NCBI GenBank assembly: GCA_965218425.1
Contig: OZ244621.1
Location: 4,395,498 to 4,459,497, forward strand
Source of the DNA: an uncultured Candidatus Binatia bacterium
GTDB lineage: Bacteria > Desulfobacterota > Binatia > UBA9968 > CAXXLF01
Direction: 5' to 3'
Length of the DNA: 64,000 bases
Shown here in pieces: positions 23,857 through 33,360 of this stretch. A model generated the notes under the pieces. It was not told where the DNA came from. It ran no database searches and worked only from the letters and a program-made list of their open reading frames with translations. Each line of letters begins with the position of its first letter. Position 1 is the first letter of the stretch. Position numbers and translations under genes: made by a program.

Positions 23857-24029
23857 AAAAATATATAGTGAATGAGGTATAGCCGGACAGGATCCCACTG
23901 GTTATATCTTCCCCCTAGGATCTTTTTGTGGTTGCTATAGATCTATCCAGACTGATATATTGTCGGGACAGTAATTCTCCGGAGCCGATTCAGGAGGAAC
24001 AGGGGCCGAGGCTAGCGGCCATCTCAGGA

Positions 24030-24428
24030 ATGAAAGATAAGGTCCATAAATCCGACGAGGAGTGGAAAAAGCGACTCACCCCTGAACAGTTCTACGTCTG
24101 CCGACAAAAAGGCACCGAGGCGCCCTTCTCGGGAGAATACTGCAACTCCAAAGAGAAGGGAGTTTACCAGTGCACCTGCTGCGGCAACGATCTTTTCAGC
24201 TCAGACACAAAATTTGATTCCGGCACGGGCTGGCCAAGCTTTTGGCAACCCATCGCACCGCAGAACGTCGATACGGAAACCGACAACAGTCGTTTCATGG
24301 AGAGGATTGAAGTGATGTGCAGCGCCTGCGGCGCCCATCTCGGTCATGTGTTCGACGACGGCCCAAATCCCACGAACCTGCGCTACTGCATCAATTCCGT
24401 TTCCCTGAAACTCGCAAAGGATAAATGA
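24030..24428 (+). CDS. msrB: Peptide-methionine (R)-S-oxide reductase
   Basis: GTEAPFSG, Cxx[28 protein letters not shown]. Confidence 0.97.
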
Positions 24429-29495: not shown

Positions 29496-30605
29496 ATGAT
29501 CACTGAACGTGCCGATGTTGTTGGCAGTCTGCTTCGGCCGTCCGGGCTGCTGAAGGCTCAGAAGCAGGTGGCCACCGGGACCATTGACCGGTCCAGTTTT
29601 AAGGCCATCGAGGATCGGGCAGTGGACGAGGTGGTATTGCTGCAGGAAGAAGCGGGACTTGGCATCGTCACCGACGGTGAAATGCGCAGGCAGTCCTTCC
29701 AAAGCCAGATGACGGAAGCGGTTGATGGCTTTGGTGAATATACCATGGATGCCTTCCTCTGGGGTGAATGGCATGGCGACAAGAACGTGGGTGATTGGAG
29801 CCTGGAGCGTCCCAGCACTTTAGGGGTAGTGAAAAAGCTTAGTCGAAAACGATACCTTTCCGTGGATGAGTACACCTACCTGCGATCGCGCACCACGCGG
29901 ATACCCAAGATCACCCTGCCAAGCCCCAGCCTGTTTGCTAACTTCTGGTCTCCAGAGCGTTCCAAACGAGCCTATCCTACACTGGATCATCTCCTGGCTG
30001 ACATTGTCGATATTCTTCGGGGCGAGGTTACGGAGCTGACTCGGTTAGGAGCTACGTATATTCAGCTAGATGCACCCCATTACTGCTTACTGTTAGATCC
30101 GAAAACGAAGTCGTTCTATGAGTCCCGGGGATGGCGTGCCGATCGATGGCTCCAGGCCGGCATCGAAATGGATAACGCCGTGTTGGGCGAGGTTTCTCAG
30201 GTCACTTTCGGGTTTCATCTCTGACGGGGTAATCAAGGCAGCCGGTGGCTGCTGGAGGGAGGCTACGACCTTCTCGCACGACAGGTCTTTAGGGAAATCC
30301 GCGCAGAGCGACTCTTGCTGGAATATGACGACCCGCGTTCCGGATCCTTTGAACCGTTAAAAGAAGTGCCAGACGGAAAAATCGCCGTTCTCGGACTGGT
30401 TTCCACCAAGGGACCAAGACTGGAGACCCAAGCGGAGTTGGTCAAAAGAATTCACGAAGCAAGCCGATTCCTGCCCCTCCAGCAACTAGCCGTCAGCCCG
30501 CAGTGCGGATTTTCCACATCTGTAATCGGCAATCGGATTTCAGCGCGGGATCAGAAGCAAAAGCTTCGTGCAGTGGTTGAAGCCGCTCATTCGGTATGGG
30601 GCTAA
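29496..30605 (+). CDS. Cobalamin-independent methionine synthase II-family (Meth_synt_2) protein; candidate selenoprotein (U243)
   Basis: ORFs 29496-30224 and 30315-30605 are in one frame separated by a single TGA (30222-30224) in HL*RGN (family consensus HxCRGN). Motifs VGSLLRP, TDGEMRR, LLEYD and SPQCGF are intact. Confidence 0.85.
30225..30255 (+). promoter_or_regulatory. Candidate bacterial SECIS element
   Basis: GCAGCC-GGT-GGCTGC hairpin (30238-30252); the loop starts 19 nt after the UGA. Confidence 0.6.
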
Positions 30606-30726: not shown

Positions 30727-31395
30727 ATGGCAAACCAACAATTTATTGACTCGCTCTTAAAGGATATCATCCAACCAGGCTTGAAGCGTCTCATGGAGAC
30801 CCGTTTCTTCACGGAATTAAGGGAGGGAAAGCTCTCCAACAAGAGACTCCAGGGGTTCGCATTGCAACACTACCTCCACAACATCTCCATCAACAAGGGT
30901 TTTGCCCTGTGCATGGTAAAGAACGCTCACATCCCGGAGCTATACGCTCATTTCGAGCACCAGTTTAACGAGGAAGGCCCTCACCCCGATCTGGCAAAAA
31001 AATTTGGCATTGCCGTTGGACTCAAAGAAGAGGACTTCAAGGCTATTACCCCGGTCTTTGAGTGTTTGGCTCACACCAGCGCCGTTCTTCGGGGCATGCT
31101 GTTGGGGTCCCCCGGGGAGAACCGTGCGGGGGCCCTGGTAAATGAAACCATGGTTTGCCGTTACTCGGAAGAATTTGATACCTACCTGCACAAGAACTAC
31201 CAGCTCTCGGACGATGCCTGTGAGTTTTTCTCGGTCCATGCAGTGGCGGACAAGGAACACACTCAGTTGGCGGCGGAGGTGATCATGCGTTTCGCCCAAA
31301 CTCCACAGGAGCAGGAGGCTGCACGGGTGAACGCCCTTAACATGGCTCGGTTCAAGGTTGCAAAATTCGACGGTATCTACGAAAGCTACAATTAA
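30727..31395 (+). CDS. Heme-oxygenase-like diiron enzyme (TenA/PqqC/CADD superfamily)
   Basis: FFTELREGKL; predicted ligand pattern EEGPH...NE...HAVADKEH. Confidence 0.8.
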   Translation: MANQQFIDSLLKDIIQPGLKRLMETRFFTELREGKLSNKRLQGFALQHYLHNISINKGFALCMVKNAHIPELYAHFEHQFNEEGPHPDLAKKFGIAVGLKEEDFKAITPVFECLAHTSAVLRGMLLGSPGENRAGALVNETMVCRYSEEFDTYLHKNYQLSDDACEFFSVHAVADKEHTQLAAEVIMRFAQTPQEQEAARVNALNMARFKVAKFDGIYESYN

Positions 31396-31458
31396 TTTAA
31401 TTCGTTCCCGATCCTCTGCCGATCAAATCCTGCTTTATTTTCTTTGGAACCACAGAAC

Positions 31459-32529
31459 ATGCGCCACCGTGACGTTGGAGTCGTTAGTATTGATTCTACG
31501 CAGACGATGCCCGGCTACACCCTCATCGTGCCGCTGTCGGGCAAGTCCGCATATCTCATCGGCTTGCGAGGAGAGATCCTCCATCAGTGGAGCTTTCCCT
31601 TCACCCCGGGAAACTATGCCTACCTCCTACCCAATGGCAACCTCCTCTGGTCGGGCCGGACCCCAGAAGGCCCTCCCATCCCACAGGGAAAGGGCGGCAT
31701 CCTGCGCGAGTACAACTGGGCGGGCGAAGTCCTTTGGGAGTATCGGGATCCTGGGCAGCACCATGACTTTCGCCGGCTCACCAGCGGGAACACCATTTAT
31801 ATCGGGAGAGAGCCCGTTCCACAGGACACGGTTTCAAGGATCAGGGGAGGCCTCATTGGAACGGAACACGACGGCCAGGTTTTTGGCGACTACCTGCGGG
31901 AAGTAAACGCCAAGGGAGAGACTGTCTGGGATTGGCACGCTCACCGGGATATGGAGTTGGATCGCTACATGATTTGTCCTTTGTGCGCAAGGGACGAGTT
32001 CGCCCACGCTAACACATGCGCCCCGCTTCCCGATGGCAACATCATGATCAGCTTCCGCCGCCTCAACATGATCGCCGTCATCGATCGAGAGACGCGCCGA
32101 TTTTGTTGGGAGCGCCGGGACGACACCTGGGGGCATCAGCATGACTGCCACCTTCTGGCGAACGGGAACATCCTTTTATTCGCCAACGGATTCCATGGCA
32201 CGGGCACGTCATTTTCCAGGGTCCTCGAACTAAACAAGGACACAGGGGAAACCGTCTGGGAGTACCAGGGTTGGCCACCATACACTTTCTACAGTCCAAA
32301 CATCAGCGGAGCCCAGCGACTACCCAACGGAAATACCCTCATTTGCGAGGGACGGACTGGCCGGGTCTTCGAAGTGACCCACGGCAAGGAAATCGTTTGG
32401 GAATATGTCTGCCCTTATTTCGCAGCCTACGGTCCGGAGGGTCCATCCAACGCCTTGTTTCGCTGTTATCGTTACGCGGGTGACTCACTCGAGATTGCTG
32501 GAAGGGTCTCGACTTCGCTGATCCGGTAA
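31459..32529 (+). CDS. Arylsulfotransferase (ASST)-family beta-propeller protein, no signal peptide
   Basis: QHHDF, HANTC, QHDCH, SGAQRLPNGNTLICEG. Confidence 0.9.
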   Translation: MRHRDVGVVSIDSTQTMPGYTLIVPLSGKSAYLIGLRGEILHQWSFPFTPGNYAYLLPNGNLLWSGRTPEGPPIPQGKGGILREYNWAGEVLWEYRDPGQHHDFRRLTSGNTIYIGREPVPQDTVSRIRGGLIGTEHDGQVFGDYLREVNAKGETVWDWHAHRDMELDRYMICPLCARDEFAHANTCAPLPDGNIMISFRRLNMIAVIDRETRRFCWERRDDTWGHQHDCHLLANGNILLFANGFHGTGTSFSRVLELNKDTGETVWEYQGWPPYTFYSPNISGAQRLPNGNTLICEGRTGRVFEVTHGKEIVWEYVCPYFAAYGPEGPSNALFRCYRYAGDSLEIAGRVSTSLIR

Positions 32530-32568: not shown

Positions 32569-33360
32569 ATGGAGATCCATTTCATCGGCACCGGGTCGCC
32601 TTATCCGGACCCAAAGCGGGGGAGTTCGGCCATCCTTGTGGATATAGGATCGGCGAGGATTCTGCTGGACTGCGGCCGTGGCTGTTTGCAGCGCATGGCA
32701 GAGATGGGAATAGCTCCACACACCATCACCCACTGTATTTTAACCCATGGCCATTACGATCATGTGGCCGACTATGCCCTGCTTGTCCTGACCTCTTGGC
32801 GTTTCGGAAGACACCATACGTTACAGGTCTATGGACCGCCGGGCACCCGGGCCATGTCCGATGCCCTGTTCAATGAAGCCTATAAGATAGACATTGCAGC
32901 CCGTAAGAGCCTTCACAGCGCCGAAGCCGCGGCGGACATTAACATCCAGGTGCAGGAGATCAGTCATGGCCATCAGATCGAGGCCGATGGGTGGCGCGTT
33001 CGAGCCACGGAGGTCAAACACTGGCCTATTCCAGTCTCCCTGGGTCTCCTAGTTGAGGGGGACGGACGACGTATCTTCTTTACGGGGGATACGGCCCCAT
33101 GTGATGCCGTGCGGCAGGACGCCGCAGGTGTGGACCTACTCATCCACGAGGCCATGTACTTTCCAAAAGATTCCGGCCACTATCAAAGCCACACCCATCC
33201 AACCCATGCGGGAGAGGTGGCCCGTCAGGCGGGGGTTAAACAGTTGATCTTAACGCACCTCCAACCGAAGCGCACCGAAGAGCAGCTCTTGAATGACGCG
33301 ACTACCCAATTCTCACGGAAAATTACAATGGCAACGGATCAGATGCGGATTGTGGTGTAG
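32569..33360 (+). CDS. MBL-fold hydrolase (RNase Z / AtsA arylsulfatase-like)
   Basis: FIGTGSP, LDCG, THGHYDH, TGDT, LIHEA, LTHL. Confidence 0.9.
   Translation: MEIHFIGTGSPYPDPKRGSSAILVDIGSARILLDCGRGCLQRMAEMGIAPHTITHCILTHGHYDHVADYALLVLTSWRFGRHHTLQVYGPPGTRAMSDALFNEAYKIDIAARKSLHSAEAAADINIQVQEISHGHQIEADGWRVRATEVKHWPIPVSLGLLVEGDGRRIFFTGDTAPCDAVRQDAAGVDLLIHEAMYFPKDSGHYQSHTHPTHAGEVARQAGVKQLILTHLQPKRTEEQLLNDATTQFSRKITMATDQMRIVV

Follow-up and report, generated by a model that had tools for sequence, protein, structure and literature searches.

The stretch of DNA analysed here (the window, 64,000 nucleotides of contig OZ244621.1 in the assembly GCA_965218425.1 of an uncultured Candidatus Binatia bacterium) carries on its plus strand a gene for a short MetE-like protein, whose reading frame of 369 codons runs from the ATG at position 29496 to the TAA at 30603–30605 and contains a single internal stop, the TGA of codon 243. 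In the translation, where TGA is rendered as selenocysteine (Sec, U), this codon stands in the context VTFGFHL-U-RGNQGSRW. Gene calling with translation table 11 divides the frame into an open reading frame (ORF) of 242 residues (29496–30224) and one of 96 residues that starts with TTG (30315–30605). An initial annotation, made from the sequence alone, had taken the codon for a candidate Sec at the zinc-ligand position of a methionine synthase II-family enzyme and had seen no other lesion in the frame; a second reading of the sequence and its translation bears it out on the single TGA and on the otherwise intact 369 codons. The gene is a genuine, mis-annotated selenoprotein gene that encodes a short MetE-like zinc enzyme in its Sec form, and its TGA almost certainly encodes Sec. 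The coordinates of the gene and its features are collected in Table 1.

Public gene calls (NCBI/ENA) for this gene contain the truncated 242-residue product only, the kind of mishandling by annotation pipelines that the initial annotation had expected, and the read-through sequence is absent from them. A relative in the JGI records (P0083, 395 residues) has W at the Sec column, presumably from a contig translated with TGA as Trp, which represents another route to mis-annotation of the family.

Table 1. Features of the Sec-containing MetE-like gene in the window. Counterparts follow the zinc ligands and homocysteine-binding residues listed for E. coli MetE in Price et al. 2021 (PMC7857596).
Feature	Position	Strand	Counterpart in E. 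coli MetE	Basis
Sec-containing short MetE-like (Meth_synt_2, 1YPX-type) coding sequence	29496–30605	+		369 codons plus TAA; PF01717, 1ypx_A, AlphaFold2 model
Predicted Sec codon U243 (TGA)	30222–30224	+	C643, zinc ligand	hhalign; conservation among orthologs
His241 codon	30216–30218	+	H641, zinc ligand	hhalign; invariant in alignment A1; end of model strand 237–242
Glu276 codon (LLEYDD), probable Glu zinc ligand	30321–30323	+	E665 (probable)	invariant in A1 and in 18 Sec forms; last residue of model strand 272–276
Cys337 codon (SPQCGF)	30504–30506	+	C726, zinc ligand	hhalign; aligned to PDCGL of Candida Met6p; invariant
Ser11 codon	29526–29528	+	S433, binds homocysteine	hhalign rows counted by hand; invariant in A1
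Glu62			E484, binds homocysteine	hhalign
Asp192			D599, binds homocysteine	hhalign
Candidate bacterial Sec insertion sequence (SECIS) hairpin within the coding sequence	30237–30253	+		stem 30237–30243/30247–30253, loop GGU 30244–30246

Conservation of the TGA and the Sec-decoding machinery

The TGA is not peculiar to this assembly. The 15 best matches to the protein among 61 related genomes (60–100% identity), which include the genome of the window itself (G000, one contig of 4.46 Mb), contain exactly one TGA each, and in all 15 it occupies the same column of the motif F-[GA]-[FIL]-H-[LVI]-U-R-G-N-Q-G. The next matches in these genomes are stop-free paralogs of at most 46% identity. A scan of named genomes returned 27 loci, one of which is cut by a contig end at the column. 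The remaining 26 display the alternation between Cys (20 loci, TGC or TGT) and TGA (six loci) that the initial annotation had proposed to look for. By record title, the TGA loci belong to Gemmatimonadales (two loci), Candidatus Binatia (a protein 88% identical to that of the window), Dehalococcoidia, Terriglobia and one further bacterium, and the Cys loci to Alpha- and Gammaproteobacteria, Terriglobia, Actinomycetes, Rubrobacter, Thermodesulfobacteriota, Gemmatimonadota, Litchfieldella and others. The Cys-form orthologs are up to 70% identical to the window protein.

A metagenome search with an exact degenerate pattern for F-H-x-TGA-R-G-N-Q-G matched at least 120 stretches, and 80 loci out of these were analysed downstream of the TGA. 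The frame reaches a stop codon in 71 of the 80 and stays open to the end of the locus in nine; this stop lies 125–133 codons after the TGA in 69 of the 71 loci (at exactly 126 in 61 of them, and at 115 and 61 codons in the two others). The PQCG motif is kept in 70 of the 73 sufficiently long loci and LxEYD in 77 of 79. The 62 longer Sec forms from metagenomes, which are 57.6–86.6% identical to the window protein, fall into 50 clusters when grouped at 90% identity and into 25 when grouped at 80%. The recurrence of TGA in the same column of every ortholog examined (15 of 15 in the related genomes, five more genomes and 80 of 80 metagenome loci) is beyond chance.

Coding constraint does not relax after the TGA. 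All 18 aligned Sec forms have the TGA at the same column and no other stop, and 40 of the 128 columns downstream of it are invariant in them, including the RGNQG right behind the TGA, which comes before any codon at which translation could restart (the earliest such codon in frame being the TTG at 30315). For pairs with unsaturated synonymous divergence (dS), omega is 0.08–0.18 in the 5′ part of the gene and 0.06–0.20 in the 3′ part (0.117 and 0.091, respectively, for the pair L021/L022, 0.174 and 0.200 for L027/L028, and 0.173 and 0.110 for L042/L043). Purifying selection is as strong 3′ of the TGA as it is 5′ of it. The codon is also unaltered in contigs from four runs of three studies, one run being possibly the window's own source. 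No RNA run is among the 14 runs listed for the locus.

The genome of the window encodes the machinery required to decode UGA as Sec, a point that the initial annotation had left to be checked. It contains a tRNA-Sec gene (76.5 bits; called tRNA-SeC with the anticodon tca by ARAGORN) and genes for SelA (592 bits), SelB (413 bits) and SelD (378 bits), the latter with a single in-frame TGA of its own; the four genes are grouped within ~11 kb. TGA is also an ordinary terminator in this genome, where it ends 403 of the 1124 open frames of at least 400 codons. SelA was found in 18 of 20 TGA-form genomes, namely in all five from other phyla and, among the 15 related genomes that have a TGA ortholog, in 13. 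Cys forms occur both with and without SelA, which was found in four of the five Cys-form genomes tested.

A candidate SECIS hairpin downstream of the TGA

The sequence GCAGCC-GGT-GGCTGC (30238–30252), which had been pointed out as a hairpin in the initial annotation, is present as described and is extended by an outermost G-U pair to a stem of 7 bp with a GGU loop, the first base of which lies exactly 19 nt from the A of the TGA. Folding gives it a minimum free energy (MFE) of -11.0 to -11.8 kcal/mol. The bacterial SECIS (bSECIS) consensus, as laid out in PMC13188914 (Fig. 2 legend), consists of an apical loop of 3–9 nt on a stem of 4–16 bp, an MFE that does not exceed -7.5 kcal/mol, a G within the first two nucleotides of the loop, mostly with G or U after it, and a distance of 16–37 nt between the UGA and the loop. 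The hairpin falls within all four constraints taken from this source (loop, stem, spacing and MFE).

The part of the hairpin that separates Sec from Cys forms most clearly is its loop, as a comparison of 100 Sec forms with 19 Cys forms demonstrates. The loop reads GGU in 87 Sec forms and GUU in 13, which fits exactly the G-then-G/U rule as it is stated for the bSECIS consensus, whereas the Cys forms mostly have GCU (11 of 19). The Arg codon in the loop is CGG in 86 Sec forms, CGT in 13, AGG in one and CGC in none, as opposed to 11 CGC, seven CGG and one CGT in the Cys forms; yet over the whole of the Sec-form genes no Arg codon is used more often than CGC (233 of 670). Most Sec forms are saturated at synonymous sites relative to one another, and the persistence of G or U at the third position of the loop codon even so argues for selection on the RNA. 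Stems of at least 7 contiguous bp are found in 64 of the 100 Sec forms and in four of the 19 Cys forms. The longer stems of the Sec forms go back to the residue that follows R-W-L, for which they have S, A, T or L and the Cys forms mostly V.

The hairpin is likely, though not proven, to be the SECIS of the gene, and the weight of this assignment comes from the position of the hairpin and the conservation of its loop, not from its energy. A SECIS comparison within the genome yielded no usable counterpart: a crude scan turned up noise only, and the MFE fold behind the TGA of SelD, with its CCC loop, does not lend itself to comparison. No Rfam family, riboswitches included, was matched at E ≤ 1 between 28800 and 30800, and a promoter and terminator scan near the gene gave nothing beyond the shuffled expectation.

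In its organisation, the gene resembles bacterial selenoprotein genes with an in-frame SECIS, for which fdhF is the paradigm: these have a UGA-to-loop spacing in the same range, a small loop, Cys-containing homologs, and SelA, SelB, SelC and SelD. Unlike in fdhF-type genes, the stem-loop and a conserved peptide, G-S-R-W-L, here use the same bases, and this peptide is kept in the Cys forms as well. The overlap of the SECIS with the peptide motif would be an example of a coding sequence predisposed to Sec recoding.

Fold, predicted metal site and alternative explanations

The protein is a member of the Meth_synt_2 family (Pfam PF01717, 56.2 bits against a cut-off of 21, residues 9–364) and not a canonical MetE, the model of which (TIGR01371) requires 929.95 bits and gives 43.2 bits on the protein; in a search of the genome it scores 30.8 bits on this gene and covers profile residues 432–601 only. 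The best solved relative is 1YPX (1ypx_A, E 1.7e-45 over residues 6–369), an uncharacterised Listeria 'vitamin-B12-independent methionine synthase family protein'. The MesD structure (3rpd_A, E 2.7e-7) and, likewise, MetE proteins match far more weakly. The AlphaFold2 model, built from an alignment of 16 sequences (pLDDT 81, pTM 0.85), is most similar in Foldseek to the catalytic domains of MetE, 1YPX and 3RPD (E 4e-19 to 2e-16, TMq 0.65–0.75; E 4e-19 to 1e-13 over the MetE structures), with folds of the uroporphyrinogen decarboxylase type as runners-up (E near 1e-6).

The residues of the active site were located with hhalign against E. coli MetE (probability 97.7), the positions being counted by hand from the printed alignment. 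According to the residue list in Price et al. 2021 (PMC7857596), MetE holds zinc by H641, C643, E665 and C726 and binds homocysteine by S433, E484 and D599. U243 is aligned with C643, so the placement of the TGA in a zinc-ligand column, made in the initial annotation, agrees with the published ligand. Also intact, as had been noted there, are the motifs LLEYD and SPQCGF, which contain E276 and C337. S11, E62, D192, H241 and E276 are invariant in alignment A1, and Cys stands at the U243 column in 1YPX and Candida Met6p. In the model, H241/U243, E276 and C337 are situated at the tips of successive strands (237–242, 272–276 and 331–335), and the invariance of E276 together with its position at a strand tip suggests that it is the Glu metal ligand, in agreement with the initial annotation. 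By homology to MetE, Sec243 probably ligates zinc.

The closest known proteins are the short, Cys-containing members of the 'cobalamin-independent methionine synthase II family' (1YPX; PRK06520 and PRK06233), in which we also place YxjG and YxjH of B. subtilis. They have the same length, a single domain and the motifs H-x-C-R-G-N, LEYD and PQCGF, and 1YPX shares the fold (TMt 0.80); the protein described here differs from them by Sec at the first Cys of the metal site. The MetE proteins (of E. coli; of T. maritima, 1T7L/1XDJ; of C. albicans, 3PPF/4L5Z) have the same catalytic barrel, and the zinc ligands H641, C643 and C726 and the homocysteine-binding residues of the E. coli enzyme have equivalents here. 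In contrast to MetE, the Sec protein has no N-terminal folate-binding barrel (369 residues versus about 750), contains ~11 extra residues inserted after the HxU motif and before the Glu ligand, and has Sec at the position of C643. In lacking a folate-binding domain it resembles the core folate-independent synthases MesA–MesD (PMC7857596), which consist of the same single catalytic domain without the folate-binding domain, have the zinc and homocysteine residues, and use a methyl donor other than free methyl-folate, as is proposed here; none of these families is reported there with Sec. The protein is much closer to 1YPX than to MesD (see above).

Several observations weigh against the assignment of this gene to a Sec-containing, zinc-dependent MetE relative or against parts of it. 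The stability of the hairpin is nothing unusual in a G+C-rich sequence of this composition (z -1.17; 26 of 200 dinucleotide shuffles are as stable or more so), its arms are the codons of G-S-R-W-L, which is conserved in Cys forms too, and equally strong hairpins are found in four of 20 Cys forms (L046, L061, L066 and L067). Compensatory changes are nearly absent (pair 18–30 is C-G in 79 cases and G-C in one), because the arms are codon-constrained. The SECIS proposed in the initial annotation stands with regard to the constraints given in PMC13188914 and loses ground in that the hairpin is partly forced by the peptide and also forms in several Cys forms. The Sec forms are perhaps one clade, so that counts across them are not independent. 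When scored with C for U, the protein stays below the cut-offs of both curated short-family models (234.7 bits versus 313 for NF005085/PRK06520 and 210.7 versus 576 for NF004875/PRK06233), and hhalign aligns E665 of the published ligand list with R266/E267, in a gapped stretch of low confidence, and not with E276. None of the genes nearby recurs across lineages, and gene context thus lends no support to a substrate. Finally, in two related genomes with an intact TGA ortholog (G005 and G047, with loci L025 and L032), neither SelA nor SelD, nor SelB above the cut-off, was detected. Both are fragmented assemblies (240 and 210 contigs), and, since the sel genes are clustered in the genome of the window, the gap is explicable by one lost contig in each. 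This is the simplest account; mis-binning could be another cause.

That a nonsense mutation has turned the gene into a pseudogene, or that it makes two products (242 residues and a C-terminal fragment), agrees with the table 11 calling and with the 242-residue product in public records, and it can nevertheless be dismissed with near certainty: the same TGA is kept across sequences diverged to 56% identity, a second lesion is absent from all 18 aligned Sec forms, omega is ~0.1 right after the TGA, a stretch that includes the invariant RGNQG ahead of the first restart TTG, and the two pieces would have three of the four metal ligands divided between them. The machinery, the conservation among orthologs and in metagenomes, the selection and the contig support combined exclude, for practical purposes, that the TGA is an error of sequencing or that the gene is split or a pseudogene. 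It is very improbable, too, that read-through or recoding of the UGA involves no selenium, e.g. with near-cognate insertion of Trp or Cys, and gives a full-length protein that is not a selenoprotein. Such an event would suit the W in P0083 and the two TGA-form assemblies in which Sec machinery was not detected, but TGA is a normal stop in the genome of the window, where the Sec machinery is complete, the homologous residue is Cys, the classic partner of Sec, and SelA is present in 18 of 20 TGA-form genomes. The hairpin, which lies at the right distance and conforms to the bSECIS consensus as given in PMC13188914, has a loop that is constrained in TGA forms only, which also argues against selenium-free decoding.

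The alternative that concerns the function of Sec, not its insertion, is less remote, although still unlikely. Sec243 might be a nucleophile, a relay for methyl groups or selenium, or part of a site retuned for another metal or for a sulfur or selenium compound other than homocysteine, e.g. one related to ergothioneine or selenoneine. Zinc-bound thiolates can themselves be alkylated, as in the Ada protein, and MetH is already present in the genome, which makes a housekeeping role unneeded. In two of 98 Sec-form loci (L059 and L090), the gene lies between a gene for an EgtD-like histidine methyltransferase (Methyltransf_33, 367.7 bits) and an EgtB/SenA-like gene with DinB and FGE-sulfatase domains. 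This arrangement (2835–8725 in L059) may point to a connection of the family with ergothioneine or selenoneine chemistry, confined to a minority of lineages. On the other hand, the window has no Egt neighbours, the EgtB-like gene of this genome being ~365 kb away, and the other three metal ligands are intact. No variation is seen in the three residues by which homocysteine is held at its free amino and carboxyl groups, and this fits a plain alpha-amino acid better than a trimethylated betaine.

It is highly probable that the gene encodes one selenoprotein of 369 residues with Sec decoded at the UGA and a MetE-type barrel that has Sec at the position of a zinc ligand. The Sec interpretation of the initial annotation is supported overall, and homology suggests both zinc binding by Sec and the substrate.

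Evolution, gene context and possible role

The phylogenetic tree was built from 42 rows, with L053 (a duplicate), L033 and L035 (partial) and L047 (which contains N) left out. It places the window protein in a clade of 14 Sec forms with 98% SH-aLRT support. The free tree needs two changes of the Sec label, and the likelihood increases (+7.5, p-AU 0.66) when all 18 Sec forms are constrained to one clade. Repeated independent switches from Cys to Sec are not supported by this comparison, and one change from Cys to Sec, with later transfer between phyla, explains the pattern at least equally well.

Synteny with the window (a Na+/H+ exchanger gene upstream and a TenA/Haem_oxygenas_2 gene downstream) extends to the three closest genomes only. 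The latter gene is located directly downstream on the plus strand (30727–31395) and encodes a protein of 222 residues that belongs to the Haem_oxygenas_2 and TENA-THI-4-PQQC families. It is followed on the same strand by genes for an arylsulfotransferase (ASST)-like beta-propeller protein (31444–32529) and a metallo-beta-lactamase-fold protein (32569–33360). Further upstream, also on the plus strand, an ORF of 166 residues (23928–24428) has in its translation two CxxC pairs and a RYCINS-like motif, which we take to be typical of methionine sulfoxide reductase B. Neighbours were defined as same-strand ORFs of at least 70 residues within 2.2 kb, which yielded 10 ORFs in the window and 98 flanking ORFs of 17 Sec-form loci. 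Neither MesX (DUF1852) nor the carriers TusA, DsrE and OsmC are encoded by any of these ORFs, and the flanking ORFs likewise include no corrinoid-protein gene. The Egt-like genes of L059 are followed by an ABC ATPase gene and an OpuAC-permease fusion, and an EgtB-like gene is found 1.3 kb upstream of the Cys form L067.

The genome of the window encodes a full MetH (1674.5 bits) and no two-domain MetE. Its best match to TIGR01371 is a different short paralog, a 342-residue open frame (G000:C1:4384255-4385262) ~10 kb ahead of the window start, which covers TIGR01371 positions 418–752 with 104.9 bits and may be a core methionine synthase. According to tblastn, there are seven Meth_synt_2-like regions in the genome, this gene included. 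A Cys paralog (G000:C1:3089474-3090394; 39% identity, HLCRGNN) is devoid of approximately the first 64 residues, including the motif equivalent to that of Ser11, and may be a truncated or decaying copy. It was considered as a second selenoprotein and rejected: it has Cys in HLCRGNN, and the TGA is merely the upstream stop of an N-terminally shorter gene. Because MetH is present in the genome and the protein has no folate-binding N-terminal domain, the Sec enzyme is probably not the housekeeping methionine synthase.

In the mechanism that we propose, UGA codon 243 would be read as Sec by SelB carrying Sec-tRNA(Sec), with the hairpin and its GGU loop 19 nt downstream within the coding sequence as the most likely recoding signal. 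The product would be a single-domain (beta/alpha)8-barrel of the MetE catalytic-domain superfamily, nearest to the 1YPX type, in which zinc may be held by His241, Sec243, Glu276 and Cys337, a selenolate replacing the first thiolate ligand. An alpha-amino acid resembling homocysteine would be bound by Ser11, Glu62 and Asp192, and its thiol or selenol, once activated by the metal, would accept a methyl group from a donor that is presumably not a folate. Homocysteine itself, which is suggested by the conserved homocysteine-binding residues only, is a possible but rather doubtful substrate.

As to why Sec might be preferred, our favoured guess is a metal site that is both more electron-rich and more tolerant of oxidation, the two ideas being non-exclusive. 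A selenolate could give the zinc more electron density, by which the thiolate of the substrate would be loosened and activated. The oxidation of Sec is more readily reversed. The zinc-site cysteines of MetE are described in PMC4360819 as weak points under oxidative stress: S-bacillithiolation of Cys730 in the zinc site of B. subtilis MetE leads to methionine starvation, and YxjG is a target as well.

There is precedent for Sec as a first-sphere ligand of a catalytic metal. Both [NiFeSe] hydrogenase and Mo/W formate dehydrogenase carry Sec as a metal ligand; these are redox enzymes with Ni or Mo/W, unlike the redox-inert zinc and the methyl transfer predicted here. We tentatively suggest that this is the first natural enzyme family to use a catalytic zinc-selenolate in non-redox methyl transfer, that it arose by one Cys-to-Sec switch, for which the hairpin was pre-encoded by G-S-R-W-L, and that it spread horizontally to at least four phylum-level lineages. 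It might have a specialised role in the metabolism of sulfur or selenium amino acids (e.g. selenohomocysteine, or one linked to ergothioneine or selenoneine), and not a housekeeping one.

The family also appears to be new to the selenoprotein literature, as the initial annotation had surmised. A 2026 review that tabulates 119 prokaryotic selenoprotein families lists no methionine synthase, MetE, homocysteine or PF01717 entry, and there is no such family in the BSepDB paper and one of its supplementary files (the BSepDB website itself being outside the search) or in the deep-Sep paper. A full-text literature search, subscription journals aside, returned no paper on a Sec-containing MetE-like protein, and an NCBIfam scan of the protein matched no selenoprotein-specific model. 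The Sec MetE-like family is widespread in uncultured soil- and sediment-type lineages and is unlisted in the literature searched. Since the gene is truncated in annotation and unlisted and yet common, the selenoproteomes of Binatia, Gemmatimonadota, Acidobacteriota and Chloroflexota are undercounted.

To our knowledge, nearly all known selenoproteins employ Sec for redox chemistry. If Sec243 is indeed a first-shell ligand of zinc, a redox-inert metal, in a methyltransferase, it would widen the known uses of selenium, and the Sec and Cys forms of this family would constitute a natural experiment on how the donor strength of a ligand tunes zinc-thiolate alkylation, a question that is debated for MetE, MetH, Ada and farnesyltransferase.

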